The translations under genes and the position numbers were made by a program. The notes under the pieces are model-generated. The model saw nothing but the letters and a program-made list of their open reading frames with translations, did no database searches and was not told the origin of the DNA. DNA of 64,000 nucleotides, taken from Thermodesulfobacteriota bacterium (lineage in GTDB: Bacteria > Desulfobacterota > BSN033 > UBA1163). Of the stretch, positions 2,509 through 64,000 are shown one piece after another; the first letter of the stretch is position 1; the number at the start of each line of letters is the position of its first letter. The DNA lies in assembly GCA_036769565.1 (NCBI GenBank), contig DAIPKW010000001.1:44416-108415 (forward strand). Reading direction: 5' to 3'.

Positions 2509-2509
2509 A

Positions 2510-2701
2510 ATGGAAGGAACGAGTTTTTACCAATGCCCCCTTTGTGGGACAAGGTTCTCAGGTACGGAGATGACCTGCAAAGGATGTCTCCTCTCGAAGG
2601 AATGCAATCTGCTCTGTTGCCCCCATTGCGGATATTCTTATAAGGAACGCTCTGCGCTGGTAGATTTTTTCAAAACGTTATGGAGGAAGAAAAAACCATG
2701 A
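2510..2701 (+). CDS. Small Cys-rich zinc-ribbon-like protein in the feo operon
   Basis: 63 aa with two CxxC pairs plus further Cys residues and no TM segment. Sits 2 bp after the feoB stop and overlaps the dtxR start. No identifiable FeoA. Could be a FeoC-like or FeoB-associated small protein. Confidence 0.4.
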   Translation: MEGTSFYQCPLCGTRFSGTEMTCKGCLLSKECNLLCCPHCGYSYKERSALVDFFKTLWRKKKP

Positions 2702-7052: not shown

Positions 7053-8189
7053 TCATATTGGAGGGGGATTTTCAAGGACAGGAGAAAAGGGATTGGCAAT
7101 ACAAGATATTCCAAAACTATGAGCAACGCCTTCGCAGACGACCGCTCCATCGATCAGATTTAACCCTTTACGCAACGCTTCATTCTCAGTCAAGGCCTTC
7201 TCATATCCCAGATCTGCCATTTGAAGGATGTAGGGGAAAGTGGCATTGGTGAGGGCAAAGGTGGCGGTTCTCGGATAGGCCCCTGGAATATTGGCAACGC
7301 AATAATGGACGACCCCTTCCTCAGTATAGGTGGGGTTTTCATGCGTTGTCGGTCTTGACGTCTCAAAACAGCCACCTTGATCCACGGAGACATCAACAAT
7401 GACTGAGCCGGGCCGCATTCGACTCAGCATCTGACGTGTCACCAATTTGGGCGCTTGGGCGCCTGGGATAAGAACCGCTCCGATCACAAGATCGGCATCT
7501 GCAATCTCTTCGCTGATGGTCATCCGGTTGGAGATAAAAGTGGTGATATGGCCCTGGGTGATATCATGGAGATAACTGAGCCTTTCAGGTCGCACATCGA
7601 GAACAGAGACCCGAGCTCCCATACCCACAGCGACTTTGCAGGCATTGGCACCGACAACACCTGCACCGAGAATGACCACTTTGGCCGGTGGAACGCCTGA
7701 GGCGCCACAGAGGAGGACGCCTCTTCCGCCATATCTCGATTCAAGACACATCCCGCCTGCAAGAATGGAGGCCCTGCCTGCAATCTCACTCATTGGTCTG
7801 AGCAAAGGAAGCGTACCGTCCCGCTCCTGAACGGTTTCATAACCGATACCAACGATTCTTGAGGATAATAATGCCTTGGTAAGAACCTTACTGGCAGCAA
7901 GATGAAGATAGGTAAAGAGAACTTGCCCTGGCCGGAGCAAAGGAAATTCCTGTTCTTGGGGTTCCTTCACCTTCACAATGAGATCAGCCTCTCTCCATAT
8001 TCGCCTCACATTCTCAATCAGGATGGCTCCGGCTCTTTCATACTCTCCATCACTGAAGCCGCTTCCCTCTCCTGCACCCATTTCGACCAAGACCTTATGA
8101 TGATGCGAAACTAGGGCATCCACTCCCTGAGGAGTCATGGCGACCCGCCTCTCTCCTTCTTTGATCTCTTTTGGAATTCCGATGATCAT
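7053..8189 (-). CDS. ald: Alanine dehydrogenase
   Basis: 378 aa. MIIGIPKEIK..ERRVA.TP N-terminus and the GAGVVG NAD-binding motif. Near-collinear with Bacillus Ald. Confidence 0.9.
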   Translation of the reverse strand: MIIGIPKEIKEGERRVAMTPQGVDALVSHHHKVLVEMGAGEGSGFSDGEYERAGAILIENVRRIWREADLIVKVKEPQEQEFPLLRPGQVLFTYLHLAASKVLTKALLSSRIVGIGYETVQERDGTLPLLRPMSEIAGRASILAGGMCLESRYGGRGVLLCGASGVPPAKVVILGAGVVGANACKVAVGMGARVSVLDVRPERLSYLHDITQGHITTFISNRMTISEEIADADLVIGAVLIPGAQAPKLVTRQMLSRMRPGSVIVDVSVDQGGCFETSRPTTHENPTYTEEGVVHYCVANIPGAYPRTATFALTNATFPYILQMADLGYEKALTENEALRKGLNLIDGAVVCEGVAHSFGISCIANPFSPVLENPPPI

Positions 8190-9391
8190 GCGGGACCTCC
8201 AACAGGGCGGGCGGTCAACTGTTTTGCGACAAAATCAACCATCTCTTCCGTTGCCTTCGAAAACTCTTTCGCCGTAGCGATCATGGCTGTATGTGAGACA
8301 AACTCATCTGGCGTCAATCCATCCTCTGCATAAGCCCTCTCAAAATAGGGAATTCGCAATAACCGATCGAGAACAGATCTGGGGATTTCCTCATCGATCT
8401 GGGAGGTGAATTCAGTCCCGTCCAAATGTTCCAACACTCCCTCAATAAAGGTAGGTGGGCAGGTGAATACAATATCGCCACCTGCCAATTTCTCCAAATG
8501 CCAGCAATGTTTCTTCCCGTCCATCTCTGGGCTAATCCTCATGGAGCAGATGAGCATCTTGCTCGGATATCCCCTCTCTTTTAAGAGTCGGTAAGCCTTC
8601 TTGAAAATGGCGATCTCAGCCCAACGGACATCCGCCTCGGAGAGGGGAATATGGAGCGTCTCCGCCTCCTTTCGAAGATCTCCCAGATCGCCATATCGTG
8701 CCGTCATATGGGTGATCACAGAACGCCAGCGAGATAGATCAACGCCATTCTGTTTGGCAATCTCCAGTCCTTCTTTGACCGCCTTCGCACAAGCCATCAG
8801 TTGGGGAAGAACAAAGGTGAGTGTATTATTCGTTGAAATTCCCTTCGATGTGAGAAACCGAATGACCTCATACCCTTCCTTGCTTCCTGGAACCTTAATC
8901 ATCACATTGGGGCTGAGGCTTGCCAGCTCCAGGGCTTGCGAAATCATCCTCTCTTTGTTTGTCAAATTTCGAGGGTCAACCTGTCCTGAAAGATATCCAT
9001 ACCGGTATCCGGACTGGTTAAAAACCTCCAGATACATCTCCGCCCCTCTTCGGACAATCTCCTTATAGGTCATCCAAAAGAGCGATTCTTTGTCAACCTC
9101 AGGGTTTCTTTCAATCAAGTCGCGAATGATTTCGTTCACGAACGATTCTCTTGCCTTGATCACCCCCAGGGAAAGGGGAGGGTTGGTCGTTACACCTCGA
9201 AAGAGGGTTCTGCCAGGAGCCTCTGGGTCGTAGAGCCTCTTCAATTGCTCCTGTAACTCATCCCTCTTTTCAGCGGAGGCCTTCTTCAGGACACCCTCCA
9301 TCCATGAAGCATAGACCAGTGGAGAAGAATCCCACCAGATCTCCAAGCCTGGATGAGTCTTCATCAACTTTTCAAGAGGGGTCGGTTTCAT
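8186..9391 (-). CDS. tal: Transaldolase family protein, long form
   Basis: 401 aa. VTTNPPL and the Schiff-base IKVPGSKEG...TNNTLTFVLPQLMACA block align to TalB active-site regions. 4-bp overlaps with both neighbours. Confidence 0.7.
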   Translation of the reverse strand: MKPTPLEKLMKTHPGLEIWWDSSPLVYASWMEGVLKKASAEKRDELQEQLKRLYDPEAPGRTLFRGVTTNPPLSLGVIKARESFVNEIIRDLIERNPEVDKESLFWMTYKEIVRRGAEMYLEVFNQSGYRYGYLSGQVDPRNLTNKERMISQALELASLSPNVMIKVPGSKEGYEVIRFLTSKGISTNNTLTFVLPQLMACAKAVKEGLEIAKQNGVDLSRWRSVITHMTARYGDLGDLRKEAETLHIPLSEADVRWAEIAIFKKAYRLLKERGYPSKMLICSMRISPEMDGKKHCWHLEKLAGGDIVFTCPPTFIEGVLEHLDGTEFTSQIDEEIPRSVLDRLLRIPYFERAYAEDGLTPDEFVSHTAMIATAKEFSKATEEMVDFVAKQLTARPVGGPA

Positions 9392-16069: not shown

Positions 16070-18487
16070 ATGAAAAATCAGGCGCGCGTGGTCATCATTG
16101 GAAGTGGAATCACGGGCTGCAGTATCGCCTACCATCTTACAAGAATGGGATGGAACGATGTCATCCTTCTTGATAAAGGAGAGCTCACCAGCGGTGCCAC
16201 TTTTCATGCGGCCGGGTTGGTGGGCCAGTTGCGGGCGTCCGTCAATATCACAAAGATGCTCAAATACAGTGTCGAACTCTATTCAAGGCTGGAAGAAGAG
16301 ACCGGACAGCACACAGCATGGAGCCCTGTAGGTGGTCTCCGGATCGCCTCTTCAAAAGACCGAATGGAGGAATTGCGTCGCTCTGCTGCAATGGCAAAGA
16401 CTTTTGGTCTTCCCATGGAACTGATCAGTCCGAAAGAGGCTTGTGACCTCTTCCCGGTCATGACAAAAAAAGGAATCGTTGGGGCCGCCTTTCTTCCCAC
16501 AGATGGTCAGATCGATCCGAGCGGTGTGACCTATGCCCTAGCTCAGGGAGCAAGAAGCAGAGGGGCAACCATCTATACGGATACCCGTGTCACTGGGATC
16601 AGATTGAAGAATGGTGCTATTGATGAGGTCCTCACAGAAAAGGGAAATATCAAAGCAGAAATTGTAGTCAACGCCGCAGGGATCTGGGCTCCAGAGATTG
16701 GAAAGATGGTGGGCGTTGCCATTCCACTCATCCCCATGGAGCACCAGTATATCATCACAAAACCGATCGAAGGAGTAAAAAAAGGAATGCCCACGATGCG
16801 GGACCCTGACCTTTTGGTCTATTTCCGCGAGGAATTGGGTGGTCTCATCATGGGTGGTTATGAACACAATCCCATCCCATGGGCTTTGGATGGTATTCCC
16901 AAAGACTTTACCAAAACACTTCTCAAATCGAACTACGAACATTTCGAACCCCTCTCTGCTTTAGCCATGAAGAGGGTGCCCTGTATCGGTGAGGCTGAAA
17001 TCATCACCCTTCTTAATGGTCCAGAGGCTTTCACCTCGGACGGCGACTTCATCATGGGAGAATCACCAGAGGTGAAAAATTTCTTCGTTGCTGCTGGTTT
17101 CTGTGCCCATGGCATTGCGGCTGCAGGAGGAGTGGGCAAAATGATGGCCGAATGGATCATCGAGGGAGAGCCGAGTCTCGATCTCTGGCGTCTCGATATC
17201 CGACGTCTCGGTCCCCACCATCGAAGTCAGACCTACACAGTCCACAGAGCGATAGAAATTTATGCCCATCACTACTCCATGAACTGGCCCTATGAAGAGA
17301 TGATTTCAGCAAGACCTCTTCGAACAAGCCCCCTTTATGAGCGACTTAAAAAGGCAGGAGCCGTTTTGGGCGAAAAGTATGGCTGGGAACGGCCCAACTG
17401 GTTTGCGCCGAAGGGAACGCCTCCAAAAGACAGACTGGGTTGGGGCCTACCAAATTGGTTTGATCATGTCGGGAAAGAACACGAGGCGGTTAGAACAAGG
17501 GCGGCCGTCATTGATCAGACCTCCTTTGGAAAGATCGACGTGAAAGGCCCTCGGGCGCTCCAGTTCCTTCAGAAGTTAACCGACAATCAGATGGAGAAAC
17601 CGATTGGTTCAACCACTTACACTCAGATGCTCAACGAAAGGGGAGGGATCGAGTGTGACCTAACGGTGAGCCGAATTAGCGAAGACCATTTCTATCTTGT
17701 AACAGGAACCGCTTTTATTAAACACGACCTTCAGTGGCTAAAAAAACATCTGCCTTCAGATGGCTCTGTCTCAATCGAAGATATCACTTCTTCTAAGGCC
17801 TGTATCACACTCTGTGGGCCAGAGTCTAGAAATATTTTGAAGCAACTGACCAGAGACGACATCTCAAATGAAGGATTCCCATACATGACCTGTAAGGAGA
17901 TAACCATAGGTAATGCTGCTGTCCTTGCCATCCGGATTACCTATGTGGGCGAATTGGGATGGGAGTTACATGTACCCACAGAATACGCCTTGCATCTCTA
18001 CGATCAATTCTGGGAGGTGGGAAAACCTATTGGCTTGGTCAATGCCGGTTACCGATGCATCGACTCCCTGCGGCTGGAGAAGGGATATCGTTACTGGAGC
18101 GGAGACATCTCTCCAGAATATACGCCTTTTGAGGCTGGACTCGATTTCTGTGTAAAATTGGACAAAGGTGACTTTATAGGCCGCAAAGCCCTTCTAACTC
18201 AGAAAGAAAAAGGATTAACTCGCAAACTCTGTTGTTTTACGATCGATTCAGGCCCACTGATGCCAGTTGGTAAAGAGGCCATCCTGGATGGAGATAAAGT
18301 AGTTGGCATTGTTACCAGCGGAGGATTCGGACACACGATCAAAAAACCCATTGCCTTGGGATACCTTCCCATGGATTATTCAAAACCGGGCACCCGATTG
18401 CAGATCGAAGTAGCCGCAAAAAGATACGAAGCCATCGTCGAAAAAGAGCCTCTCTACGACCCGGAAAATAAAAAGGTGAAGGGGTAA
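16070..18487 (+). CDS. FAD-dependent oxidoreductase fused to an aminomethyltransferase (GcvT) domain; dimethylglycine/sarcosine dehydrogenase family
   Basis: 805 aa. N-terminal GSGITGCS.A..L dinucleotide fold (DAO domain) and a C-terminal GcvT-like folate-binding domain. Substrate unknown. Confidence 0.75.
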   Translation: MKNQARVVIIGSGITGCSIAYHLTRMGWNDVILLDKGELTSGATFHAAGLVGQLRASVNITKMLKYSVELYSRLEEETGQHTAWSPVGGLRIASSKDRMEELRRSAAMAKTFGLPMELISPKEACDLFPVMTKKGIVGAAFLPTDGQIDPSGVTYALAQGARSRGATIYTDTRVTGIRLKNGAIDEVLTEKGNIKAEIVVNAAGIWAPEIGKMVGVAIPLIPMEHQYIITKPIEGVKKGMPTMRDPDLLVYFREELGGLIMGGYEHNPIPWALDGIPKDFTKTLLKSNYEHFEPLSALAMKRVPCIGEAEIITLLNGPEAFTSDGDFIMGESPEVKNFFVAAGFCAHGIAAAGGVGKMMAEWIIEGEPSLDLWRLDIRRLGPHHRSQTYTVHRAIEIYAHHYSMNWPYEEMISARPLRTSPLYERLKKAGAVLGEKYGWERPNWFAPKGTPPKDRLGWGLPNWFDHVGKEHEAVRTRAAVIDQTSFGKIDVKGPRALQFLQKLTDNQMEKPIGSTTYTQMLNERGGIECDLTVSRISEDHFYLVTGTAFIKHDLQWLKKHLPSDGSVSIEDITSSKACITLCGPESRNILKQLTRDDISNEGFPYMTCKEITIGNAAVLAIRITYVGELGWELHVPTEYALHLYDQFWEVGKPIGLVNAGYRCIDSLRLEKGYRYWSGDISPEYTPFEAGLDFCVKLDKGDFIGRKALLTQKEKGLTRKLCCFTIDSGPLMPVGKEAILDGDKVVGIVTSGGFGHTIKKPIALGYLPMDYSKPGTRLQIEVAAKRYEAIVEKEPLYDPENKKVKG

Positions 18488-51626: not shown

Positions 51627-52958
51627 TTACAAAACCGAAAAATACTGCTCTAACTCATAGTCTGTGACGCGGGAGCGGTAACGCTCCCATTCGACCTTCT
51701 TATTCTCAATAAACTTATAGAAGACTTCGTCTCCGAGGGCTCTTCGTACCAGATCACTTTTCTCCGTGACCTGAATCGCTTCCCAGAGGTCCTCTGGTAG
51801 GGTTTCAATCCGATGTCTCCTTCTCTCTTTTTCGGTCATCTCATAGACATTTCTCTCCACCGGATCTCTTAAAGGATACTTCTTCTCGATCCCCTCTAGC
51901 CCAGCCGCCAACATCACAGAGAAGGCTAAATAGGGATTGCAGGCCGGATCTGGGCACCGGTATTCCACACGGGTCGCAAGCTCCTTTCCTGGTTTGTAGA
52001 CGGGGATTCGGATGAGATCGGAGCGGTTCTTCTGTGCCCAAGAGATATAGACCGGCGCTTCGTAACCAGGCACCAACCGCTTATAGGAGTTTACCCATTG
52101 ATTGGTAACCAGGGTGATCTCACGGGCATGCTTCATCAGTCCGGCAATATAATGTTTGGCGACATCGGATAGATGATACTTATCTTTCGGATCGAAAAAG
52201 GCATTCTTACTTCCTTTAAAAAGAGACTGATGTGTATGCATCCCACTTCCGTTGATTCCAAAAACAGGTTTAGGCATGAAACTGGCATATACACCATTCT
52301 TTAGAGCTACCTCTTTGACGACCAATCGGTAGATCATCGTATTATCGGCCATCGTTAAGGCATCTGTATACTTTAAATCAATTTCATGTTGACTGGGTGC
52401 GGCTTCATGGTGGCTGTATTCAACTTGGATGCCCATCTCTTCCAGGACCATAACAGCCTGTTTGCGGAGGTCGCTTGCCACATCAAGAGGGGTCAAATCG
52501 AAATAGCCTCCTGAATCGAGAAGCTCTGGCTTGCCCGAAGAATTCCTAAAATAGAAAAACTCCAGCTCTGGGCCTACGTTAAAGGTGTATCCCATCTTTT
52601 GAGCCCTCTCCAGATTCCTCTTTAACACCCAGCGAGGATCACTCTGATAAGGTTTCCCATCGGGCTGTAGGATGTCGCAGAACATGACCGCCACCACATG
52701 GTCATTTGCCTTCCAGGGGAAAATCCTGAAGGTAGATGGATCAGGCTTGGCCACCATATCGCTTTCATCAATCCTTGCAAAACCGGCCACAGAGGAGCCG
52801 TCAAACCCCATTCCGTCTTCAAGAGCTGATTCTAATTCGCGAATGGTGATCGCAAAGCTCTTCAAAAAGCCGAGGATATCGGAGAACCATAGCCTGACAA
52901 ACCTGACCTTCTTCTCCTTTGCAATCCTCAGAACATCCTCTCTACTTAATTTAGCCAT
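51627..52958 (-). CDS. glnA: Glutamine synthetase, type I
   Basis: 443 aa with GS beta-grasp and catalytic domains. AGAGGGGGA RBS. Confidence 0.9.
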   Translation of the reverse strand: MAKLSREDVLRIAKEKKVRFVRLWFSDILGFLKSFAITIRELESALEDGMGFDGSSVAGFARIDESDMVAKPDPSTFRIFPWKANDHVVAVMFCDILQPDGKPYQSDPRWVLKRNLERAQKMGYTFNVGPELEFFYFRNSSGKPELLDSGGYFDLTPLDVASDLRKQAVMVLEEMGIQVEYSHHEAAPSQHEIDLKYTDALTMADNTMIYRLVVKEVALKNGVYASFMPKPVFGINGSGMHTHQSLFKGSKNAFFDPKDKYHLSDVAKHYIAGLMKHAREITLVTNQWVNSYKRLVPGYEAPVYISWAQKNRSDLIRIPVYKPGKELATRVEYRCPDPACNPYLAFSVMLAAGLEGIEKKYPLRDPVERNVYEMTEKERRRHRIETLPEDLWEAIQVTEKSDLVRRALGDEVFYKFIENKKVEWERYRSRVTDYELEQYFSVL

Positions 52959-53418: not shown

Positions 53419-54147
53419 ATGGCTAAGAAAGGAGTTCCCACATTGCTTTACAAAAAGACTTCCTACAAACAGCAGATCAAGGCCCTCACTGAAATCAGCA
53501 AGGCCATCTCGTCAGATAGGTACCTTGATGATATTCTAAAACTGATCGTGACAGTCACGGCCAATGTGATGGACTCAAAGATCTGCTCTCTCTGGCTTCT
53601 CGATGAGAAAGAGAAGGCTCTCAAAATCCGAGCCACCCAAACCATGAGCGAGGAATATCTGAAAGAGAGGAGCCTAAAATTGGGTGAGGGTGTTGTAGGC
53701 TATGTGGCCCAGACCAAAAAACCCCTGGCCATCCTCGATGTCCTCAAAGAGCCCCGGTATAAGGAGAAAGAGTTGGCAAAAAAGGAAGGTCTGGTCTCCA
53801 TGCTGAGCGTCCCTCTTGCCATTAAGGATAAGGTCATCGGCGTGATCAACTGCTATACCTCTTATCCTCATCAATTTACCGAAGCAGAACAAGACATGCT
53901 TACGGCAGTTGCCAGTCAAGCCGCCATCTGTATTGAGAGTACGGAGTTGATGGTAAAAACTAAGGTGATCCAAGAGGAATTGGAGGTTCGAAAACTGATC
54001 GAAAGAGCAAAGGGTATTCTGATGAAACGGCAGGGGCTGAGCGAAGAGGAAGCCTTCAAACGGATCCGCAAGGCGAGCATGGATAGCCGAAAAACGATGC
54101 GCGAAATCGCCGAAGCCATCCTCCTCACCGACAAAATGGGTGGGTAG
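53419..54147 (+). CDS. GAF plus ANTAR domain RNA-binding antitermination regulator
   Basis: N-terminal GAF-like domain and the C-terminal ANTAR motif EVRKLIERAKGILMKRQGLSEEEAFKRIRKASMDSRKTMREIAEAIL. Confidence 0.8.
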   Translation: MAKKGVPTLLYKKTSYKQQIKALTEISKAISSDRYLDDILKLIVTVTANVMDSKICSLWLLDEKEKALKIRATQTMSEEYLKERSLKLGEGVVGYVAQTKKPLAILDVLKEPRYKEKELAKKEGLVSMLSVPLAIKDKVIGVINCYTSYPHQFTEAEQDMLTAVASQAAICIESTELMVKTKVIQEELEVRKLIERAKGILMKRQGLSEEEAFKRIRKASMDSRKTMREIAEAILLTDKMGG

Positions 54148-54508: not shown

Positions 54509-55710
54509 GTGAAAACAATTGCCATCCTTGGAACTCTAAACACCAAGAGAGAAGAAATTAACTATATTAGAGAGAGAATCATAGAGAAGGGCCATCAAGC
54601 GATCATCGTCGATCTCAGCCTCAATCTATGGGATACATCTTCCTTTAGATCCGATATAGGCCAGCAACAGATAGCCGACGAGAGCGGGATGAAATTGGAG
54701 GAATTAACCTCAATGGCTCAAGAGGAGGCGTGCACCGTCGTTATCAAGGGTGCTACCAGCCTCGTGGGTAAACTTTACCGGTCCGGGAAATTGAACGGTA
54801 TTCTGGCGCTCGGTGGCACAGTAGGAACGTCAATGGGTTGCGCTGTGATGAGAAGTTTACCATTGGGTATCCCCAAATTGATGGTCTCAACTTTTGTTAG
54901 CGATATCCGACCATTTGTAGGCAATAAAGATATTGTCTTTTTTCCATCGAACATTGATATGTTCGGGCTGAACCATATCTCCAAAAGGCTTCTGGCCAAA
55001 GCTGCAGGGGCTATTGTAGGGATGGTCGAAGCCGATACAGTTCCTTTCACGCTGAAAAACCCATCATTGGGATGTCAGTGCGTGGTGATAAGGCCCCATG
55101 TGTTGATAGGGTAAAGTCTCTGCTTGAGAAGAACGGATTTGAAGTGATCTGTTTCCACGCCGTGGGCCAGGGGTTGCTCTTGGAAGAATTGGTAAGGGAA
55201 GGGATCATTGGAGGTGTATTAGACCTCGTCCCAGCTGAAGTGAATGAGTACCTCTTTGGAGGAATGTTCAGCGCTGGTCCAGAGCGTTTAGAGGCGGCGG
55301 CTAAAAGGGGAATCCCCCAGCTGATTAGCACAGGTGGGATAGAATTCGTCTGTTTTCCAGACGAAAAGGTTATTCCACCACCGTTTAGAAAACGAAAGAG
55401 GAGAGCTCATAACCCCAATGTCATTGCGGTCTGGCTGAATAAAAAGGAGATGATCCAGGTAGCTAAGGTAATGGCAGAAAAGTTGAACCTGGCTAAGGGC
55501 CCAACAGCCGTGATCATTCCAATGAAAGGCTTCGGTGGAGGGGGTTGGACCATCGATCCAAAACTGATTCCCGTCTTGATCAGCACCCTTAGGGAAGAAC
55601 TAAAACCTGAGATCGAAGTGATGGAAGTCGATGCCCACATCAATGACAGCTCCTTTGCCAATGCAGCTGTAGAACTCTTTCTTAAGTTGATGAACAAAAC
55701 GAAAGAATGA
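54509..55710 (+). pseudogene. UPF0261 (Tm-1-like ATP-binding) family gene split by a +1 frameshift near 55070
   Basis: The 54509-55114 frame ends ...TLKNPSLGCQCVV.... The 55072-55710 frame continues MSVRGDKAPCVDR.... Together they make about 400 aa, the normal length. A single-base indel in ttgggatg restores ...SLGMSVRGDK... Confidence 0.6.
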
Positions 55711-56877: not shown

Positions 56878-59526
56878 TTGGCTGAGGAAATGGGTTCTTC
56901 TACAGTGCCTAGCGGCATTCAGGCTTTGGATGATGTACTACAGGGAATTCGTCTCGGTGACAATGTGGTCTGGCAGGTGGAGCGGTTAGAGGATTACCTC
57001 TACTTTGCCGTCCCATTTGCTGAAGCCTCCATCGCCTCCAAGCGGCGCATGGTCTATCTTCGGTTCGCCTCCCATCCTCCTGTTCTGACACCGCGACCGG
57101 GTTTGGAGATCATTGAATTAAATCCTGCTCTGGGGTTCGACTACTTTTCAAAGGAAACGCATCGCCTCATTGAAGCCTATGGCCATGAGGTCATGTACGT
57201 CTTTGACAATCTCTCTGCCCTGGTGGTGGAGTGGGCCACAGATGAACTTTTAGCCAATTTTTTTCAGATCACCTGCCCTTTGCTCTACGAATATGACACC
57301 ATCGCCTATTTTGCCTTAACGCGCGGCCAGCACGCACATCATGCCGTTGCCCGGATTCGGGACACCACCCAGATCCTGGTGGATGTCTACCAGATCAATG
57401 GACAGATGCATATCCACCCCATCAAGGTCTGGGATCGCTACTCGCCTCAGATGTTTCTTCCCCATCTTGTGGCAGGAGACCAGTGGGCACCTCTTGCACA
57501 AAGTCAGGAAGCGGCCAAGGTGCTTTCGTCGGCCTATCAATCGCCTCTCCTCGACACCACTCGACCGATCGCCCCCTGGGAAAGTGTCTATCAAAAACTC
57601 CTCCACTATCGCAACACTGCTTCGGGATTTGACGAGACCGATCCAGAACAACTGGCTTTAAAATTGGAATTGAGCCGGATGCTCATTGGCCATCACCCGG
57701 TCTTCAGTCAGTTAGCCGACCGTTACTTTACACTGGATGATCTTTTTCAAATTCGTAACCGCATGATCGGGGCAGGCCGGATCGGTGGAAAAGCGGCTGG
57801 CATGCTGTTGGCGAGGCGAATCCTGCTGTCATCAAAGGAGAATGATGGATTTGACTTTGCAGAGAGGCTTGATGACCATGACTCCTTCTATATCGGCTCG
57901 GATGTGTTTTTCACCTTTCTGGTCAACAATGATCTGTTCCGTCTCCGTCTTCGATTGACCTGCAATTCCGAAACGTCTCATGACGAGTTCCAGGAGATTG
58001 AGAAGCGTTTTTTAGCCGGTCGTTTTTCAGCCATGGTCCAGGAGCAATTTCAGGCCATGCTTGACTACTATGGCCAGGCACCCATTATCGTCCGCTCCAG
58101 CAGCCTTTTGGAAGATAGCTTTGGAAATGCCTTCGCAGGCAAGTATTCGAGCATCTTCTGCCCGAACCAGGGAACCCCGGAGGCCCGCCTGGCGGAATTT
58201 ATGAAAGCGGTTAAATTGGTTTACGCCAGCGCCCTCAATCCGGATGCGCTCTGCTATCGGAGCAAGCGGGGCCTGGGCGAATATGACGAACAGATGGCCA
58301 TTCTCGTTCAGCGCGTCTCGGGTATGCCCTATCGCCACTACTTTTTCCCCACCCTGGCAGGAGTCGCCTTTTCACGCAATCTCTATGCCTGGAACGACCT
58401 CATCGATACCCGTCAGGGAATCATCCGACTGGTCTTCGGTCTGGGCACCCGGGCTGTGGATCGGGTCGATTCCGACTACCCCCGTATGATTGCGATCAGC
58501 CATCCACACCTACGTCCAGAAGTGGGGCCCAAAGTCTACAAATACTCCCAGCACCATATGGATCTGATCGACCTGAAAAAGAATCAGTTCACCACTTGTT
58601 TGTTGACCGATGTCCTCTCGGATGGCGACTATCCCAATCTCCACCTCTTGCTTTCGATGATGCGTGACCGTTATCCTTATGATCCCATCTCTAAAAAAGT
58701 CCTTGGTAATAAAGATCAATGGGTCTTCACCTTTAATAACTTAATCCAACAGACCGATTTCGTACCCCTCATGGGAAAAATATTAACCAGACTGGAAGAA
58801 GCCTACGGCCAGCCAGTAGACATCGAGTTTACCGCCTCTCTCGATACAATGAACCGCATCCATATCAACCTGCTTCAATGCCGTCCGCTCTATCTGCCTG
58901 GATCTCTGGAAGATGTATCCATACCGGATTCTCTCCATAGGAGCCAAATTCTATTTCGCGCCCACCGAATGATCTGTGGCGGCTTCGTGGAACAAATCCG
59001 TTACATCCTCTACATCGATCCAAAAACCTACAATCGCATCAGCTACGAGGCCAAAAAATCCCTGGGCCGCATGGTCGGACAAATCAACAGACATCCAATG
59101 ATTCGGTTTGAAAAGATCATCATGATGGGACCGGGACGCTGGGGAACCAGTAACATCGCCCTCGGAGTCAATGTGAGTTATGCCGACATTGATAATGCTT
59201 CGGTTTTGGTGGAAATGGCCCTCGAAGAGGCAGGACATGTGCCTGAAGTCTCATACGGAACACACTTTTTCCACGATTTGATCGAGGCCCGGATCATTTA
59301 CCTGCCGGTCTACCCTGCCGACCGCTCATCAGAGCTTCAGACAAAATTCTTTGAAACCTCGCCCAATGTGCTCTGTGAGTTTTTGCCTGAAGCCAAAGAA
59401 TTTGAATCGGTTCTCCATCTGATTGATGTTCCCAGATCAACTGGAGGGGCATTGGTTCAGGTGGTTGCCGATCCGAGGCGGCAACAGGCAGTCTGTTTTT
59501 TAGATAAACCTGTCCCAACGGTTTGA
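56878..59526 (+). CDS. PEP/pyruvate-binding (PPDK_N, ATP-grasp-like) domain protein with a degenerate KaiC/RecA-like N-terminal domain
   Basis: The central IIVRSSSLLEDSFGNAFAGKYSSI matches the nucleotide-binding domain of PEP synthase and PPDK. The N-terminal SGIQALDDVLQGIRLGDNVVW resembles the KaiC/RAD55 GIPGLDE..GGG..G..V motif but has no Walker A GKT. There is no recognisable phosphohistidine swivel motif. Confidence 0.7.
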   Translation: MAEEMGSSTVPSGIQALDDVLQGIRLGDNVVWQVERLEDYLYFAVPFAEASIASKRRMVYLRFASHPPVLTPRPGLEIIELNPALGFDYFSKETHRLIEAYGHEVMYVFDNLSALVVEWATDELLANFFQITCPLLYEYDTIAYFALTRGQHAHHAVARIRDTTQILVDVYQINGQMHIHPIKVWDRYSPQMFLPHLVAGDQWAPLAQSQEAAKVLSSAYQSPLLDTTRPIAPWESVYQKLLHYRNTASGFDETDPEQLALKLELSRMLIGHHPVFSQLADRYFTLDDLFQIRNRMIGAGRIGGKAAGMLLARRILLSSKENDGFDFAERLDDHDSFYIGSDVFFTFLVNNDLFRLRLRLTCNSETSHDEFQEIEKRFLAGRFSAMVQEQFQAMLDYYGQAPIIVRSSSLLEDSFGNAFAGKYSSIFCPNQGTPEARLAEFMKAVKLVYASALNPDALCYRSKRGLGEYDEQMAILVQRVSGMPYRHYFFPTLAGVAFSRNLYAWNDLIDTRQGIIRLVFGLGTRAVDRVDSDYPRMIAISHPHLRPEVGPKVYKYSQHHMDLIDLKKNQFTTCLLTDVLSDGDYPNLHLLLSMMRDRYPYDPISKKVLGNKDQWVFTFNNLIQQTDFVPLMGKILTRLEEAYGQPVDIEFTASLDTMNRIHINLLQCRPLYLPGSLEDVSIPDSLHRSQILFRAHRMICGGFVEQIRYILYIDPKTYNRISYEAKKSLGRMVGQINRHPMIRFEKIIMMGPGRWGTSNIALGVNVSYADIDNASVLVEMALEEAGHVPEVSYGTHFFHDLIEARIIYLPVYPADRSSELQTKFFETSPNVLCEFLPEAKEFESVLHLIDVPRSTGGALVQVVADPRRQQAVCFLDKPVPTV

Positions 59527-59732: not shown

Positions 59733-60404
59733 TCAAATGGGATTCGGGTCGCAGAAGCAGCCAAAAGTGCCTTCCGTGCAACAATTGGGCATCTCTTCCA
59801 ACCTGATACATCTTCCGCAGAGTTCTCCGGGTTCTTTCACTCCCTGACAAGGAACGACCATTCCTGGGCAGACATAATCGCATCCCCTGCAGAGACGGCA
59901 GGTGTCGGGTCGGACTTGAAAAGGCATACTGATCTTCCTGCCCGTTCCTCTTCCCACAAAACCGAGCGCCCTTCCATCCATCTGCTCATAACACATCCGA
60001 ATGCAGAGGCCGCAAAGCACACACCGGTTATCTTCCATTGGAAATCGGACTTTAAGAAGTCCCATGCGAGCCGCAATATCCTGTGCAATCTTCACATTGG
60101 GTGCACTGGCCACCAGAAGTTCTGCCAGCATCTTTCGTGCGCGGATGATCCGTGGGGTCTGTGTTTGAATCACCAAACCCTCTCTCACCTCATAGGTACA
60201 GGCTGTATCAATAAATGGCTTACCGCCATTTTGGCTAATCTCTACCACACAGATCCTGCATCCTCCATAAGGAGAAAGGTGCTCCATATAACACATCGTG
60301 GGAATGTGGATCCCAAATTGACGTCCCGCTTCAAGGATGGTGCTCCCCTGCTCCACTTCTAACAAACGCCCATCAATAGTGATCTGAACTGTTTTTCTCT
60401 CCAT
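59733..60404 (-). CDS. 2Fe-2S plus 4Fe-4S iron-sulfur protein, NuoG N-terminal fragment / HoxU-like
   Basis: Plant-ferredoxin-like 2Fe-2S (C..GGCRIC) followed by His-ligated and 4Fe-4S cluster motifs. 223 aa, no catalytic domain. Confidence 0.75.
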   Translation of the reverse strand: MERKTVQITIDGRLLEVEQGSTILEAGRQFGIHIPTMCYMEHLSPYGGCRICVVEISQNGGKPFIDTACTYEVREGLVIQTQTPRIIRARKMLAELLVASAPNVKIAQDIAARMGLLKVRFPMEDNRCVLCGLCIRMCYEQMDGRALGFVGRGTGRKISMPFQVRPDTCRLCRGCDYVCPGMVVPCQGVKEPGELCGRCIRLEEMPNCCTEGTFGCFCDPNPI

Positions 60405-60469
60405 TTTGTTCTCCTTGGTTCATTCTCATCCCTGCCCCTCCACCATCGAAAGGGAAGAAGGAGTGAGAG

Positions 60470-62320
60470 CTATTGAACCATCACTGCTTCAACTTTACAA
60501 ACATCTTTACAGGAACCGCATTTTGAGCAGCGCTCGGCTACAATACGATGTACCTGTTTCTTCTCACCAACAATGGCCTGGGTCGGGCAGATCTTCGCAC
60601 AGGCACCACATCCAGTGCATGCCTCTGAAATGACATATTGGATGAGCGATGTACATACACCAGCAGGGCATCTTTTTTGATGAATATGAGCCTCAAATTC
60701 TGGGCGAAAATATCTCAGCGCTGAAAGCACCGGATTAGGTGCTGTCTTTCCCAGACCGCAGAGGGAGGTATCCGCCACGACCTCAGACAATTCTTCAAGG
60801 AGTGCCAAACTCTCTTCATCTCCTTCTCCCTCCGTAATCCTATCGAGAATCTGCCCCATCCTTTTCAGTCCTTCACGGCAGGGAAGACATTTACCACAGG
60901 ATTCCTCCTCTAAGAAATGGACAAAATACCTCGCCACATCGACCATACAGGTCCCCTCATCCATCACGATCATTCCTCCAGAGCCCATCATCGAACCCAC
61001 CTGCGTTAAACTGTCGAAATCAACTGGAAGATCGAATAAGGAAGCAGGAATACAACCCCCTGATGGTCCCCCTGTCTGCACTGCTTTAATCTTTCGCCCA
61101 TCTTGCGGACCACCCCCAATGTCGTAGATGATCTCTTTAAGGGTGATGCCCATGGGGACTTCTACCAATCCGGTATTCTTCACTTTCCCTACCAGAGAAA
61201 AGATCTTTGTCCCCTTGCTCTTTTCGTTGCCAATAGAGGAGAACCATTGGCTTCCCCTCTCAATGATCAATGGAACATTGGCCCAAGTTTCGACATTGTT
61301 GAGATTCGTGGGTTTCCCCCAGAGTCCTCGGTTTACGGTGTGAACCTGTTTACTTCTGGGTTCTCCAACCCTCCCCTCGATGGACGCAACCAAAGCAGTC
61401 GATTCTCCGCAGACAAAGGCACCACCTCCTTTGGCAATCTCCACATCGAAATCAAAACCAGAGCCCAGAATGTTTTTCCCAAGCAATCCTGCCTTTCTGG
61501 CCTGGATGATGGCAATCTCACCATTCTGACAAGCCAGGGGATACTCATGTCTGACGTAGATGTACCCATGGCTTCCCCCGATCGCATAGGCGCCTATGAT
61601 CATCCCTTCCAAGATCGAATGAGGGTTCCCCTCGAGTAAGCTTCGGTCCATATAGGCTCCTGGATCTCCCTCATCGCAATTGCATATGATATACTTTGGA
61701 CTACCTTGGGCATGGCGGCAATCATTCCATTTTTGACCTGTTGGAAATCCAGCCCCTCCTCTTCCTCTCAAACCAGATGCCTTCACCTCATCGATGATCT
61801 GTTCAGGCTCCATTTCAAAGAGAGCCTTTGCCAGGGCCTGATATCCCCCGATGCCGATATAGTCCTCTATCTTCGCCGGATCGAGTAAGCCGTTATTTCC
61901 TAAGAGCAATCGATTCTGTAATTTATAAAAAGAAACCTCTCTCTCTGAGGAGATCTTTCTTTTAGTGCTTGTGTCCTCGTAGAGGAGATTTTCCAATACT
62001 TTTCCCTTTCCAATCGTCTCCGAAAGGATGATCGGTACATCCTTTTCTTGCACCTTCTGATAAAAAATTCCATGCGGTTGGATGGTCACAATGGGTCCCC
62101 TTTCACAGAACCCCCGGCATCCAGTAAACCTCAATCGGATCTTTTTATCCATGAGGTTATTTTTTATGCCTTTGGCAAACTGGTCCCTCACCTTTTTACA
62201 TCCATAAGCATGACATCCGGTGCCACCGCACACGGATACAGTCATCTCATAGCGCTTCTGCTTTAAAAGGATATCATCTCTCCACTGATCTAAATCCTTA
62301 AGTGATTTGACTTTTCTCAT
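60470..62320 (-). CDS. NAD(P)H dehydrogenase flavoprotein subunit, NuoF/HoxF/HndC-like, with N-terminal thioredoxin-like 2Fe-2S and C-terminal 2x4Fe-4S domains
   Basis: GRGGAGFPTG..W FMN/NADH site and the SLBB region. N-terminal CGGTGC...C..C and C-terminal ferredoxin Cys clusters. 616 aa. Confidence 0.85.
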   Translation of the reverse strand: MRKVKSLKDLDQWRDDILLKQKRYEMTVSVCGGTGCHAYGCKKVRDQFAKGIKNNLMDKKIRLRFTGCRGFCERGPIVTIQPHGIFYQKVQEKDVPIILSETIGKGKVLENLLYEDTSTKRKISSEREVSFYKLQNRLLLGNNGLLDPAKIEDYIGIGGYQALAKALFEMEPEQIIDEVKASGLRGRGGAGFPTGQKWNDCRHAQGSPKYIICNCDEGDPGAYMDRSLLEGNPHSILEGMIIGAYAIGGSHGYIYVRHEYPLACQNGEIAIIQARKAGLLGKNILGSGFDFDVEIAKGGGAFVCGESTALVASIEGRVGEPRSKQVHTVNRGLWGKPTNLNNVETWANVPLIIERGSQWFSSIGNEKSKGTKIFSLVGKVKNTGLVEVPMGITLKEIIYDIGGGPQDGRKIKAVQTGGPSGGCIPASLFDLPVDFDSLTQVGSMMGSGGMIVMDEGTCMVDVARYFVHFLEEESCGKCLPCREGLKRMGQILDRITEGEGDEESLALLEELSEVVADTSLCGLGKTAPNPVLSALRYFRPEFEAHIHQKRCPAGVCTSLIQYVISEACTGCGACAKICPTQAIVGEKKQVHRIVAERCSKCGSCKDVCKVEAVMVQ

Positions 62321-62805
62321 GACTTCACCCCACTCCGCTTGTTATTTATTTTTTCAATAATTCTTCTGGCCTTGATGGGTGTCATCTCTCCATAAAATTT
62401 TTGATCCACCATCATCACTGGACCAATGGCACAGACCCCAAGACAGTTCACCACATTTAGAGAAAACTGTTTATCTGAAGTGGTTTGCCCGGGTTCAATG
62501 CAAAGGAAACTCTTAAGTTCTCTCAAAATCTTTGGGCCTCCCCGAACATGGCAGGCTGTTCCCATGCAGAGCGTGATGGAGTGTCTACCCTTTGGAACGA
62601 GACTGAATGATTTATAGAAGGTTGCAACGCCATAGATCTCATTGATGTCCATGCGGAGCCTGGAGGCAATCATTCTTAATGCCTCTTCAGGAAGATAGCG
62701 ATAACGGTCCTGCACATCGTGTAGAATGCTTATAAGAGCAGTTCTCTTCTCCTGATACTTGTCGACGATAAAATCGACTGATTTTAGGTCCATATTCCCC
62801 TCCAA
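62317..62805 (-). CDS. NuoE/HoxE-like thioredoxin-fold 2Fe-2S subunit
   Basis: 162 aa. C...GTACHVRG...C...C pattern of the 24-kDa subunit family. Confidence 0.8.
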   Translation of the reverse strand: MEGNMDLKSVDFIVDKYQEKRTALISILHDVQDRYRYLPEEALRMIASRLRMDINEIYGVATFYKSFSLVPKGRHSITLCMGTACHVRGGPKILRELKSFLCIEPGQTTSDKQFSLNVVNCLGVCAIGPVMMVDQKFYGEMTPIKARRIIEKINNKRSGVKS

Positions 62806-62893
62806 AGAAATGTGGAATGTAATAACTTTAAATAAAAACAGTTATACTTAATTTATTTATCAAAAAAAATTAAAATTTAATTTTTACTAAAAT

Positions 62894-63964
62894 TTATAAC
62901 CCCGACCTCGGTGGACTTAAAATCCAAAGTATTACAGCCTCTCCTCTCCCTCTATTTGACCATTTTGAAGGAAAAGTCGACCCAATATATAGGCTATCTC
63001 CTTGTTTTAATATATGATTTTCGTTATTGATTTCTACCTCAAGTTCTCCTGCCATGACATAGACAAATTCATCTCCCTTGTGACTATAGAAGTGGCCTTT
63101 GACTATAGCTCCCTCCTTGAGCGTTAATAGATAAGGTTCCATTCTCCGGTTGAGGGAATCCGAAATTAGGAGCTGGAGTTTGACATCTTTCCCCCTAATG
63201 GATGGAAGCTGAATCTCTTGTCTTTCGTCTGATCTGATGACCAGCTTTTGGAGAGGACTACTTTCGCTTTCCACTAAAAAGTAGATGGGCTGTGTATTCA
63301 ATTTCTCACTCAATTTAAGAAGAGAATCGAGAGAGGGACTAATCAGATTCTTTTCAAGTTGTGAAATGAAGCTTGGGGTTAGCCCTACCTGTTCCGCTAA
63401 TTCCTTCTGAGTCATCCCCGCTTTCTTCCTTAGTGATCTGACCTTTTCGCCGAGATTGCTGGGTCTTCTACCCCCAATCGACGGAAAGATGATCTCTTCA
63501 TCCCAGACCTCATAATGTTTAGGAAGAAAGGCGGTCTTTGAAAACCGACCTTCAATCTTGATGGCCTTGAAAAAGAGTTCCCCATCCTTTTTCTCAAGTT
63601 CAATGGCAACTTGAGTGATATGCTTGAGATTGGCTTTAAAGGATGCGGAATGTGCCTCTTTCTCTAATACCCAATAAGCAACGGTCTGAAGATCATAGAG
63701 CCGGGGACAGGAGTAGGTAAAAAACTTATACGTCAGGTTCTCATCCCCCCAGATATCTTGCATACCTGTGAGGCTGTCGAAGATATAACGAACGCCTGGT
63801 CCCTTCTCAATCTCTATTCGGTCTATGGCCACCCGAAATTGTGAGTGGTCTTTTGGGTTTTCAACCTTGATGACATGTCCTCTGAACCCTTCTCTCTCTT
63901 TTTCATAGAACTGAGCGAAGAGGGGATCACTGTTTCCTTTTCCGGAGGTAAAGCAATCAAGCAC
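62894..63964 (-). CDS. XRE family HTH transcriptional regulator with C-terminal cupin domain and an uncharacterised N-terminal domain of about 185 aa
   Basis: Central LRKKAGMTQKELAEQVGLTPSFISQLE XRE HTH and a C-terminal cupin (HSHKGDEFVYVMAGELEV). Heads the diaphorase operon. Confidence 0.7.
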   Translation of the reverse strand: MLDCFTSGKGNSDPLFAQFYEKEREGFRGHVIKVENPKDHSQFRVAIDRIEIEKGPGVRYIFDSLTGMQDIWGDENLTYKFFTYSCPRLYDLQTVAYWVLEKEAHSASFKANLKHITQVAIELEKKDGELFFKAIKIEGRFSKTAFLPKHYEVWDEEIIFPSIGGRRPSNLGEKVRSLRKKAGMTQKELAEQVGLTPSFISQLEKNLISPSLDSLLKLSEKLNTQPIYFLVESESSPLQKLVIRSDERQEIQLPSIRGKDVKLQLLISDSLNRRMEPYLLTLKEGAIVKGHFYSHKGDEFVYVMAGELEVEINNENHILKQGDSLYIGSTFPSKWSNRGRGEAVILWILSPPRSGL

Positions 63965-64000
63965 GGTTAAATGTTCTAAATGTGAAAGGTGGGATAAGCG

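Follow-up and report, generated by a model that had tools for sequence, protein, structure and literature searches.

The redox operon at positions 59733-62793, on the minus strand throughout, encodes BfuA, BfuB and BfuC, which by their sequences are the type-2 A, the B and the C subunits of a Bfu family NAD(H)/ferredoxin enzyme, and it is not an orphan: across phyla it has a conserved partner gene, for a 550-571-aa FMN-binding TIM-barrel protein of the glutamate synthase family (PF01645). This gene lies about 0.4 kb past the end of the window (the whole 64,000-nucleotide stretch analysed), as located on L001; L001 and L002 are other contigs encoding the identical 616-aa flavoprotein, with the five compared window proteins 99-100% identical. 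Given this conserved partner, the operon probably belongs to an undescribed nitrogen-assimilation enzyme. The best reading, to which we give somewhat better than even chances, is a four-subunit, Bfu-driven glutamate-synthase-like enzyme made up of BfuABC and the PF01645 partner. The sequence-only reading had taken the operon for an orphan, which the gene just beyond the window contradicts; its suggestion that the operon feeds an enzyme encoded outside agrees with that gene, but the partner is neither a hydrogenase nor a formate dehydrogenase, the kinds of enzyme it had implied. The features are as follows.

51627..52958, minus strand: glnA (glutamine synthetase), with Gln-synt_N and Gln-synt_C, 7 kb from the operon
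53419..54147, plus strand: GAF-ANTAR regulator, with GAF and ANTAR domains, divergent from glnA
56878..59526, plus strand: convergent 882-aa protein with a PPDK_N ATP-grasp domain (159 bits) and a KaiC-like pseudo-ATPase N-domain
59733..60404, minus strand: type-2 BfuA, 223 aa, with Pfam Fer2_4 and two CxxCxxCxxxC motifs
60470..62320, minus strand: BfuB, 616 aa, with 2Fe-2S_thioredx (N-terminal), Complex1_51K, SLBB, NADH_4Fe-4S and two Fer4 domains
62317..62793, minus strand: BfuC, NuoE-like, 158 aa, matching PF01257 (174 bits), with the C1 [2Fe-2S] cluster
62894..64000, minus strand: 3' part of the regulator gene, 1107 nt or 369 codons including the stop, with HTH_3 and Cupin_2
about 64413-66128 in window-equivalent positions (from L001; beyond the window end), plus strand: PF01645 partner gene

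The three redox genes and their domains were found where the earlier reading had placed them (59733-62805, minus strand), as was the converging PPDK_N gene, and its tentative mention of the Bfu family is supported by matches to solved Bfu enzymes. The bfuC reading frame spans 62317-62805; translation probably begins at the ATG at 62793, which follows a GGAGG, and yields the 158-aa protein that is also called on L001 and L002, and the bfuC stop and bfuB start overlap by 4 nt. Among proteins of solved structure, BfuC matches Bfu C subunits best (146-118 bits), and NuoE less well at about 100 bits; the one nearest to BfuA is WorA (9mqx_A, E 1.7e-31, residues 3-208). In a 16-sequence family alignment its A1 [2Fe-2S] ligands (C38/C49/C52/C69) and the cysteines of its [4Fe-4S] motifs (C128-C138 and C169-C179) are all invariant, as are seven cysteines in the C-terminal tail; AELLVASAPNVKIAQD stands in place of HxxxCxxC, the motif that in NuoG and HoxU goes with a His-ligated cluster and that BfuA therefore lacks. 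WorA likewise lacks this cluster (PMC12318220), and type-2 BfuA, as in WorA, describes the protein more exactly than HoxU-like.

Of the solved structures the nearest is WorABCSL, the type-2 Bfu complex with tungsten aldehyde oxidoreductase from Acetomicrobium mobile (PDB 9MQX), matched by BfuC at 139 bits and by BfuB over its full length. Shared with it are a BfuA with A1, A2 and A4, no His-ligated A3 and a Cys-containing C-terminal extension, and the placing of catalysis on extra subunits (PMC12318220). Where WorABCSL has tungstopterin WorL plus poly-ferredoxin WorS, the present system has an FMN TIM-barrel of the glutamate synthase family as its extra subunit; the BfuA tail has its seven invariant cysteines and no evident long terminal helix; and the third substrate is predicted to be an acceptor of high potential, not a low-potential donor. 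The domains agree with the definition of the Bfu family (HydABC, NiFe-HydABCSL, NfnABC/StnABC), BfuA carrying 2Fe-2S and 4Fe-4S (Schut et al. 2022, PMC9304861). The partners named in that survey are hydrogenase, FDH, Nfn, F420, Wor, Bam, Por, Codh, Rub, Mbh and Nuo; glutamate is not mentioned.

BfuB, the predicted FMN- and NAD(H)-binding subunit, matches seven solved bifurcating B subunits end to end at 680-779 bits (WorB 9mqx_B, 779; NiFe-HydB 7t2r_B, 769; HydB 8a6t_B, 747), against 406 bits or less for non-bifurcating homologues (FdsB, 406; Nqo1, 379). Its sites are B5 [2Fe-2S] in the N-domain, B1 [4Fe-4S], B2 (CPAGVC) and B3/B4 2x[4Fe-4S] in the C-domain, the last being the ferredoxin-binding part of solved Bfu enzymes. 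All B1-B5 ligands and the motifs DEGDPGA[Y/F]M and GGPSGG are kept in the family, except in L007, where two B5 cysteines are missing, and in L093, where the ferredoxin-type C-terminal 2x[4Fe-4S] domain is absent. These two losses speak for a plain NADH-dependent enzyme in which B5 and B3/B4 are evolutionary baggage and ferredoxin has no part; so does our own estimate from textbook potentials that, for an acceptor near -0.1 V, NADH would be thermodynamically sufficient. We nevertheless consider such an enzyme unlikely: the eight B3/B4 cysteines are all invariant in 21 of the 22 family BfuB sequences, the FMN site retains the motifs described as Bfu-specific, A[F/Y]M and GGPSG (PMC12018979), and ferredoxin is used by every solved BfuBC-core enzyme (PMC9304861, PMC12018979, PMC12318220).

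The partner gene is divergent from the regulator gene and begins about 210 bp beyond it. The PF01645 profile matches the partner at 60 bits (cut-off 20.4) over 120 residues, the IMPDH profile at 21 bits, below its cut-off; by sequence PF01645, and not FMN_dh or IMPDH, is the nearest family; no match was obtained in NCBIfam, or by sequence in the PDB. The partner and an archaeal-type GltB encoded in the same locus are 24% identical over 384 aa (E 2e-7), and the motifs GE, VxxGRxGV, KxGQGAK, DGxxGGTGxSP and AGG are collinear between the two, the motifs of the GOGAT active-site region being invariant in the partner family. Of the 50 top matches that Foldseek listed, Fd-GOGAT (1ofd) has the highest query-normalised TM-score, 0.48. 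The partner is thus a homologue of the GOGAT synthase domain, albeit a remote member of PF01645. Its family is an isolated clade: of 1.84 billion representatives, phmmer matched only 1103 at E<=1e-3. None of the three Bfu subunits is as strongly conserved as the partner, which keeps 68-90% identity from phylum to phylum. A paralogue (GltB-like) without Bfu genes occurs in L096, a point against the four-subunit reading.

Glutamate synthases (GltBD; the archaeal-type split GOGAT of L093 and of Geobacter, GSU1235-1239) have the PF01645 FMN domain with its collinear motifs in common with the partner, and their genes likewise lie in nitrogen-regulated neighbourhoods with GS (PMC2725144). Unlike them, the partner lacks the 3Fe-4S motif and has an N-terminal four-cysteine motif instead (C-x2-C-x3-C-x3-C), and its electron donor module would be BfuABC, not the FAD/NADPH subunit GltD. 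The glutaminase (GATase_2), central and GXGXG domains were not found in the window or related loci (tblastn with E. coli GltB), with the single exception of a separate split GOGAT operon in L093 (Pfam). With no linked glutaminase, a glutamine-dependent reaction would need an unlinked subunit, or ammonia would be used directly.

The neighbourhood points to nitrogen assimilation. Recurrent neighbours are glnA, gdh, Amt-GAF-kinase genes (amt-fused kinases), sigma-54 response regulators, NrpR, GAF-ANTAR and NAD synthase; NrpR is a nitrogen repressor that responds to 2-oxoglutarate. Homologues of glnA adjoin the cluster in L010, L017 and L024 and the GltB-like paralogue in L096; GAF-ANTAR genes follow the cluster in L003 and L004 and precede the GltB-like gene in L096. 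In L093 a canonical archaeal-type GOGAT operon stands right alongside, so that the new enzyme would not simply be the sole GOGAT there. That operon, the isolation of the partner family, the missing 3Fe-4S motif and glutaminase subunit, and the other roles of stand-alone PF01645 proteins, such as N-methylglutamate synthase (PMC6237917), are all consistent with a Bfu module that serves the PF01645 protein to reduce or oxidise a nitrogen-linked metabolite other than glutamate (another imine, a 2-oxo or 2-hydroxy acid, or an N-alkyl-glutamate-type compound). We judge this unlikely, in view of the closeness to PF01645, the collinear and invariant active-site-region motifs and neighbours specific to the glutamate/glutamine node (GS, GDH, NrpR, Amt).

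Of 21 related loci with 4 kb or more of sequence to either side of the Bfu triad, 16 have the partner gene no more than 8 kb away from it; among loci of other Bfu types, 0 of 56 have it alongside (Fisher p = 1e-11, computed on the conservative count of 16/23 versus 0/56). Elusimicrobia, Poribacteria, Actinomycetota and unclassified lineages carry it immediately beside the triad and on the same strand; in a further Desulfobacterota genome it diverges from the regulator gene. In a neighbour-joining tree the BfuB sequences of the related loci group into a single clade, separate from GltD/Nfn-linked and other sampled Bfu loci. A diaphorase acting alone as an NAD(P)H:ferredoxin oxidoreductase, without any third substrate, would fit an operon with no catalytic gene inside the window and the five well-flanked loci with no partner gene within 4-8 kb; it is very improbable given the conserved, clade-specific linkage, which includes same-strand adjacency, and a BfuA built, like WorA, to conduct electrons and to dock by a Cys-rich tail (PMC12318220).

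HoxEFU of bidirectional NiFe hydrogenases and NuoEFG of complex I are a homologous NuoE-like, NuoF-like and NuoG-N-terminal-like set; unlike in these, BfuB has the extra B5 and B3/B4, and hoxYH and nuo genes are not nearby. Electron input to an unlinked hydrogenase or formate dehydrogenase, or descent of the operon from a broken-off piece of complex I, would account for the weak model matches to HoxE, HoxU, NuoE, NuoF and FDH gamma, but either is highly doubtful: the HoxE, HoxU, NuoF, NuoG and FDH-gamma scores fall below the curated cut-offs (HoxU, 104.6 versus 333; NuoF, 489 versus 559), NuoE model NF005722 being passed marginally by BfuC (143.4 versus 141), BfuA lacks the His-ligated cluster, and no hydrogenase, formate dehydrogenase or nuo gene is present in the 64-kb window, as the earlier reading had noted for the first two, or in the annotated related loci.

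The regulator gene, directly upstream of bfuC and kept in 13 loci, is cut by the window end; its frame is open through base 64000, not started at 63964 as had been proposed. In full it has 435 aa on L001 and L002 (L001 coordinates 1964-3271), and three domains, as read earlier, stand; the N-terminal one therefore measures about 245 aa instead of about 185 aa. Described as uncharacterised, this domain is by profile search a degenerate KaiC/RecA-like domain, followed by an XRE HTH and a cupin: KaiC PF06745 matches 9 of 11 regulator N-domains, and in the alignment with PDB 2dr3 the Walker A motif stands opposite VEAGTYIE. It is paralogous to the N-domain of the 882-aa PPDK_N protein (BLASTP 32% identity, E 4e-17). 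The PPDK_N protein adjoins the cluster also in L017, L021, L024 and L095, and is recurrent, not universal. PuuR is the best NCBIfam match of the regulator (E 8e-20); PuuR-type XRE-HTH/cupin regulators share HTH_3 and Cupin_2 with its C-terminal 190 aa, but the score is far under the cut-off (71 versus 211) and the KaiC-like domain is extra.

In the favoured four-subunit glutamate-synthase-like enzyme, the BfuB FMN would oxidise NADH, and reduced ferredoxin would probably enter via the B3/B4 clusters. Electrons would pass from B1 to the BfuA clusters A1, A2 and A4, then through the Cys-rich BfuA tail to the N-terminal cluster of the PF01645 partner, whose FMN would reduce 2-iminoglutarate, formed from 2-oxoglutarate and ammonia or glutamine-derived ammonia, to glutamate. 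In this lineage the enzyme would have a dedicated KaiC-like/XRE/cupin regulator and a place in the glutamine synthetase neighbourhood; operon and partner together would probably encode an enzyme, so far undescribed, by which anaerobes link nitrogen assimilation to NADH and ferredoxin.

The redox genes lie in a run of four consecutive reverse-strand genes at the window end. Features of this region and of glnA are as follows.

62894 to beyond 64000, reverse strand: regulator gene, first of the four (ORF list)
62317-62805 in the ORF list, reverse strand: bfuC, NuoE-like; an ATG at 62793 behind GGAGG gives 158 aa, the length also called on other contigs
60470-62320, reverse strand: bfuB, 616-aa NuoF-like protein; its start overlaps the bfuC stop by 4 nt
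59733-60404, reverse strand: bfuA, 223-aa Fe-S protein (ORF list)
56878-59526, forward strand: PPDK_N gene, 882 aa, converging on the operon
51627-52958: glnA, with a GAF-ANTAR gene divergent from it

Besides the operon region, the window holds housekeeping genes, glnA and the GAF-ANTAR gene; no hydrogenase, formate dehydrogenase or nuo genes were found within its 64 kb. The regulator had been placed with its start at 63964, but the frame runs without a stop from 63964 to 64000 and the ORF is therefore truncated by the window. The full protein has 435 aa on L001 and L002, two contigs that encode an identical 616-aa flavoprotein and whose neighbouring genes are 99-100% identical. On L001, a 571-aa ORF (called as 550 aa, P0121) of the glutamate-synthase family PF01645, the presumed catalytic partner and hereafter the partner, is divergent from the regulator; 212 bp separate its annotated start from that of the regulator (window-equivalent ~64413-66128, forward strand). 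The sequence-only reading saw an operon with no hydrogenase or formate dehydrogenase catalytic subunit and named a partner gene just beyond it as the observation that would overturn this view; such a gene lies just past the window edge. The case shows that a window edge can make an operon look "orphan".

Linkage of the PF01645 gene to the redox genes was assessed by tblastn, ORF clustering and pre-computed Pfam tables. The BfuA family is tight (222-247 aa among the 120 matches listed, most 222-236 aa; full-length members 60-88% identical among the matches listed), and 80 loci were obtained when one genome per species was scanned for BfuA. Loci at 59% BfuA identity or more belong to Syntrophaceae, Syntrophorhabdus and other Thermodesulfobacteriota MAGs, and also to Elusimicrobia, Poribacteria, Actinomycetota, Omnitrophota and Armatimonadota. 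Among the 21 family loci whose flanks reach 4 kb or more to either side, 16 have a PF01645 gene beside the NuoE-NuoF-223 triad. It is found in 0/56 loci whose BfuA-like protein is more distant (46% identity or less), nine of which carry GltD/NfnB-like genes instead (Fisher's exact p = 1e-11 for linkage, conservative count). Outside Thermodesulfobacteriota the usual arrangement is direct adjacency on one strand, in the orders Glt-C-B-A or C-B-A-(regulator)-Glt. The partner is the most conserved of the four proteins (68-90% identity across phyla). Loci without an adjacent PF01645 gene include L012, L018, L020, L022 and L023. In L012, L016, L018 and L020, where the locus has no PF01645 gene, a gene of ~315 aa (DUF1722/2-thiouracil-desulfurase-like) holds the divergent position upstream of the regulator. 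A second partner paralogue (551 aa; L096, from the same assembly as L005, GCA_040960625.1) lies without Bfu genes, flanked by a GAF-ANTAR gene divergent from glnA and by genes for a GAF kinase, a sigma-54 regulator and NAD synthase; the partner family thus also occurs apart from the Bfu module.

To judge from their sequences, the three redox proteins of the window are a Bfu module, a membership that the sequence-only reading had offered as a possibility; domains, ligands and best solved matches are all Bfu, and its domain reading of the three proteins is likewise borne out by Pfam and NCBIfam. By the InterPro set of Schut et al. 2022 (PMC9304861), BfuB has all domains in their Pfam equivalents (Nuo51 FMN, SLBB, NADH_4Fe-4S and C-terminal 4Fe-4S dicluster), and it aligns end to end with solved WorB, HydB and NfnB.

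BfuB of the window against solved structures (PDB chain, score):
A. mobile WorB, 9mqx_B: 779 bits
NiFe-HydB, 7t2r_B: 769 bits
HydB, 8a6t_B: 747 bits
HydB, 7q4v_B: 727 bits
NfnB, 9n5u_B: 700 bits
Stn, 8oh5_B: 680 bits
FdsB (non-bifurcating), 6vw7_B: 406 bits
Nqo1 (non-bifurcating), 2fug_1: 379 bits

The Cys ligands of B5, B1, B2 and B3/B4 are kept in 21/22 family BfuB sequences, and the FMN/NAD-site motifs DEGDPGA[Y/F]M and GGPSGG are also conserved across the family; in the window protein the first reads DEGDPGAYM, with Y at a position where other members have F, and the second GGPSGG. A-F-M and GGPSG motifs are specific to bifurcating enzymes and absent from non-bifurcating NuoF (PMC12018979). 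In a neighbour-joining tree of BfuB (66 sequences, no bootstrap), all family loci fall in one clade. BfuC matches PF01257 at 174 bits, and its best PDB matches are Bfu C subunits. The 223-aa protein had been read as HoxU-like; its 2Fe-2S and 4Fe-4S domains stand (the [2Fe-2S] ligands and two ferredoxin-type [4Fe-4S] motifs are kept), whereas the HoxU model reaches only 105 of the required 333 and the invariant segment AELLVASAPNVKIAQD replaces the His-ligated cluster (HxxxCxxC) of NuoG, HoxU and HydA. Its best solved relative is WorA, a type-2 BfuA that is without exactly this His-ligated cluster (PMC12318220). Type-2 BfuA is defined by the absence of A3 and A5 clusters, with catalysis on extra subunits; the Cys pattern, the HxxxCxxC loss, the WorA match and a conserved extra subunit gene were all found here. 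The C-terminal part of BfuA has seven invariant Cys after the cluster motifs. WorA carries in its C-terminal part a Zn-finger that docks the catalytic module (PMC12318220), and by analogy we infer that the Cys-rich tail of BfuA may be a counterpart of this docking Zn-finger. Two loci have irregular Bfu genes: in L093, bfuB ends before the C-terminal 2x[4Fe-4S] domain, with no CxxCxxC left in any frame; in L019 (785-kb contig binned as Euryarchaeota; 7736-8672), a bfuA of 81% identity has before it no bfuC and, of bfuB, just the final 31 codons; an assembly chimera or the remnant of a rearrangement could explain this.

Four other assignments were considered and rejected. A HoxEFU diaphorase or a complex I fragment would fit the one NuoE model marginally passed (143.4, cut-off 141), but the other curated models stay below their cut-offs (HoxE 148/224, HoxU 105/333, NuoF 489/559, NuoG 86/470) and there are no hoxYH or nuoA-N neighbours. 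A stand-alone diaphorase is improbable given the conserved linkage of the triad to the PF01645 gene. An input module for a hydrogenase or formate dehydrogenase is likewise improbable, as neither the 64-kb window nor the annotated related loci have such genes.

The partner has PF01645, "conserved region in glutamate synthase", as its sole family assignment (60 bits, cut-off 20.4; profile positions 185-302 only), and NCBI names its family "FMN-binding glutamate synthase family protein". This family is very large in metagenomes (at least 8000 scored matches) and isolated in sequence space (1103 phmmer matches at E<=1e-3 among 1.84 billion representatives). The partner matched no NCBIfam model and, by sequence, no natural protein in the PDB; against solved structures, single sequence and profile searches returned de novo TIM barrels only. 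To the archaeal-type GltB of L093 it is 24% identical over 384 residues (E 2e-7), with GE, VxxGRxGV, KxGQGAK, DGxxGGTGxSP and AGG collinear in both; the last two of these five motifs also align to E. coli GltB. Against the latter, hhalign of the family profile recovered the FMN-phosphate motif alone, at a probability of 8%, and hmmsearch with filters off gained the KxxQGAK motif. In Fd-GOGAT, the 2-oxoglutarate site includes a Gln and a Lys that belong to QGAK. The collinear motifs are evidence that the partner is a homologue of the GOGAT synthase domain. An AlphaFold model (pLDDT 82; alignment with 33-53% identical representatives) was used in fold searches, in which GOGAT and other FMN TIM barrels could not be told apart.

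From canonical GOGAT the partner differs in several respects. GOGAT has a [3Fe-4S] or equivalent Fe-S motif after the FMN site (GCHVCQKC in the aligned archaeal-type GltB), whereas the partner reads GRATMTAAMVGNTVG there, has no Cys triad and carries an invariant N-terminal C-x2-C-x3-C-x3-C in place of it. GOGAT also has a GATase_2 domain or subunit, GXGXG and central domains, none of which is linked to the partner; tblastn with the E. coli GltB domains found no GATase_2, central or GXGXG domain in the window or at any locus, the sole GATase_2 gene being that of L093, within a separate canonical operon. That operon is an archaeal-type split GOGAT operon (GATase_2, Fer4+PF01645, Fer4, Pyr_redox_2) divergent from the GltB-like-BfuCBA cluster; together they occupy L093 1-3552 and 4128-8669.

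The neighbourhood of the cluster is one of nitrogen assimilation. A glutamine synthetase gene lies near the cluster or paralogue in L010, L017, L024, L096 and the window, and a glutamate dehydrogenase gene is a neighbour in L095; in at least seven loci there are sensor kinases, either ammonium-transporter-fused or of the GAF kind, together with sigma-54 response regulators, and GAF-ANTAR proteins and glutamine-type NAD synthase recur. A gene for NrpR, the nitrogen repressor of methanogens, adjoins bfuA in L026 (2112-3107), L028 (8718-9767) and L094 (8850-9694, two pieces), all three bacterial-looking contigs.

By homology to solved Bfu enzymes, BfuB would bind NAD(H) at the FMN and ferredoxin at B3/B4, and BfuA would wire B1 to the extra subunit. 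The 2-oxoglutarate/glutamate couple lies at about -0.1 V (textbook estimate), far more positive than NAD, so electrons would have to flow toward the partner. Bfu enzymes that spend NADH plus reduced ferredoxin on high-potential acceptors have been predicted, namely Nuo-Bfu with menaquinone and Rub-Bfu with H2O2 (Schut et al. 2022, PMC9304861), and Glt-Bfu would belong with these. Two alternatives are a plain NADH-dependent enzyme and, less likely, a true bifurcation in which NADH drives the reduction of ferredoxin. In the latter case the complex would be a flavin-based, energy-conserving bifurcating enzyme of glutamate synthesis, and the strongly exergonic reduction of 2-iminoglutarate by NADH would drive ferredoxin reduction at the same time; this reading is considered improbable. 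Its balance would be 2 NADH + 2 Fd(ox) + 2-oxoglutarate + NH3 or Gln -> 2 NAD+ + 2 Fd(red) + glutamate. If this mode were true, energy-starved syntrophs would regain low-potential reductant while assimilating nitrogen, and a Bfu enzyme would use NADH as mid-potential donor; we know of no Bfu member for which such a donor has been shown.

The regulator (435 aa) consists of an N-domain of ~245 aa, an XRE HTH and a cupin. It shares the HTH_3 + Cupin_2 architecture of PuuR but scores far below the PuuR cut-off (71 vs 211). The N-domain, previously taken as ~185 aa and uncharacterised, is weakly KaiC/RecA-like by profile and PDB matches (PF06745 in 9/11 members, best E 1.6e-7; PH0284, PDB 2dr3, E 9.5e-4); its Walker A position (GxxxxGKT) reads VEAGTYIE, so the domain would be a pseudo-ATPase. 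With the N-terminal part of the 882-aa PPDK_N protein it shares 32% identity (E 4e-17), and the gene for that protein also adjoins the cluster in L017, L021, L024 and L095; that the shared pseudo-ATPase domains pair the two proteins is speculation. In 13 loci of Thermodesulfobacteriota, bfuC directly follows the regulator gene, and NrpR or GAF-ANTAR occupy comparable positions in other lineages. A direct repeat, AATCTTAAG (two copies, each with the palindrome CTTAAG), closely precedes the start of the regulator gene beyond the window end (L001 1933-1963), in the regulator/PF01645 divergent promoter region, and is a candidate operator. The sigma-54 promoter pattern had no site near the operon (eight matches in the window, no more than chance), and the sigma-70 and terminator scan gave background level only.

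Two further genes of the window were noted. A UPF0261/Tm-1-like protein (NCBIfam PRK02399; normally ~410 aa) is divided between two overlapping forward-strand ORFs (201 + 212 aa; 54509-55114 and 55072-55710) in both the window and the independent contig L001; a frameshift, a pseudogene or recoding may account for the split. An 805-aa DAO + FAO_M + GCV_T fusion of dimethylglycine/sarcosine dehydrogenase type (16070-18487, forward strand) adjoins an ABC transporter and a GntR/UTRA regulator and is unrelated to the Bfu finding.

What the Bfu family is known for so far are hydrogenases, formate dehydrogenase, transhydrogenase and aldehyde oxidoreductase. In the open-access full-text literature, no account was found of a glutamate-synthase-family protein tied to NuoEF or to Bfu. 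Glutamate is nowhere mentioned in the survey of the Bfu family, in which 17-18 of 57 clades have no assignment (PMC9304861). On comparative genomics, the three redox subunits and the partner are proposed to form a Glt-linked Bfu enzyme. If this holds, the family would gain a biosynthetic, nitrogen-assimilating member; Thermodesulfobacteriota (Syntrophaceae-like) MAGs, as well as Elusimicrobia, Poribacteria, Actinomycetota and other uncultured anaerobes, would have a candidate glutamate-forming enzyme; and the product annotated there as "FMN-binding glutamate synthase family protein", which is large and highly conserved, would have a candidate role. The prediction is concrete: it names four genes and a defined set of substrates, poses a question about the stoichiometry of ferredoxin, and would tie ammonium assimilation to the cellular ferredoxin/NADH balance.
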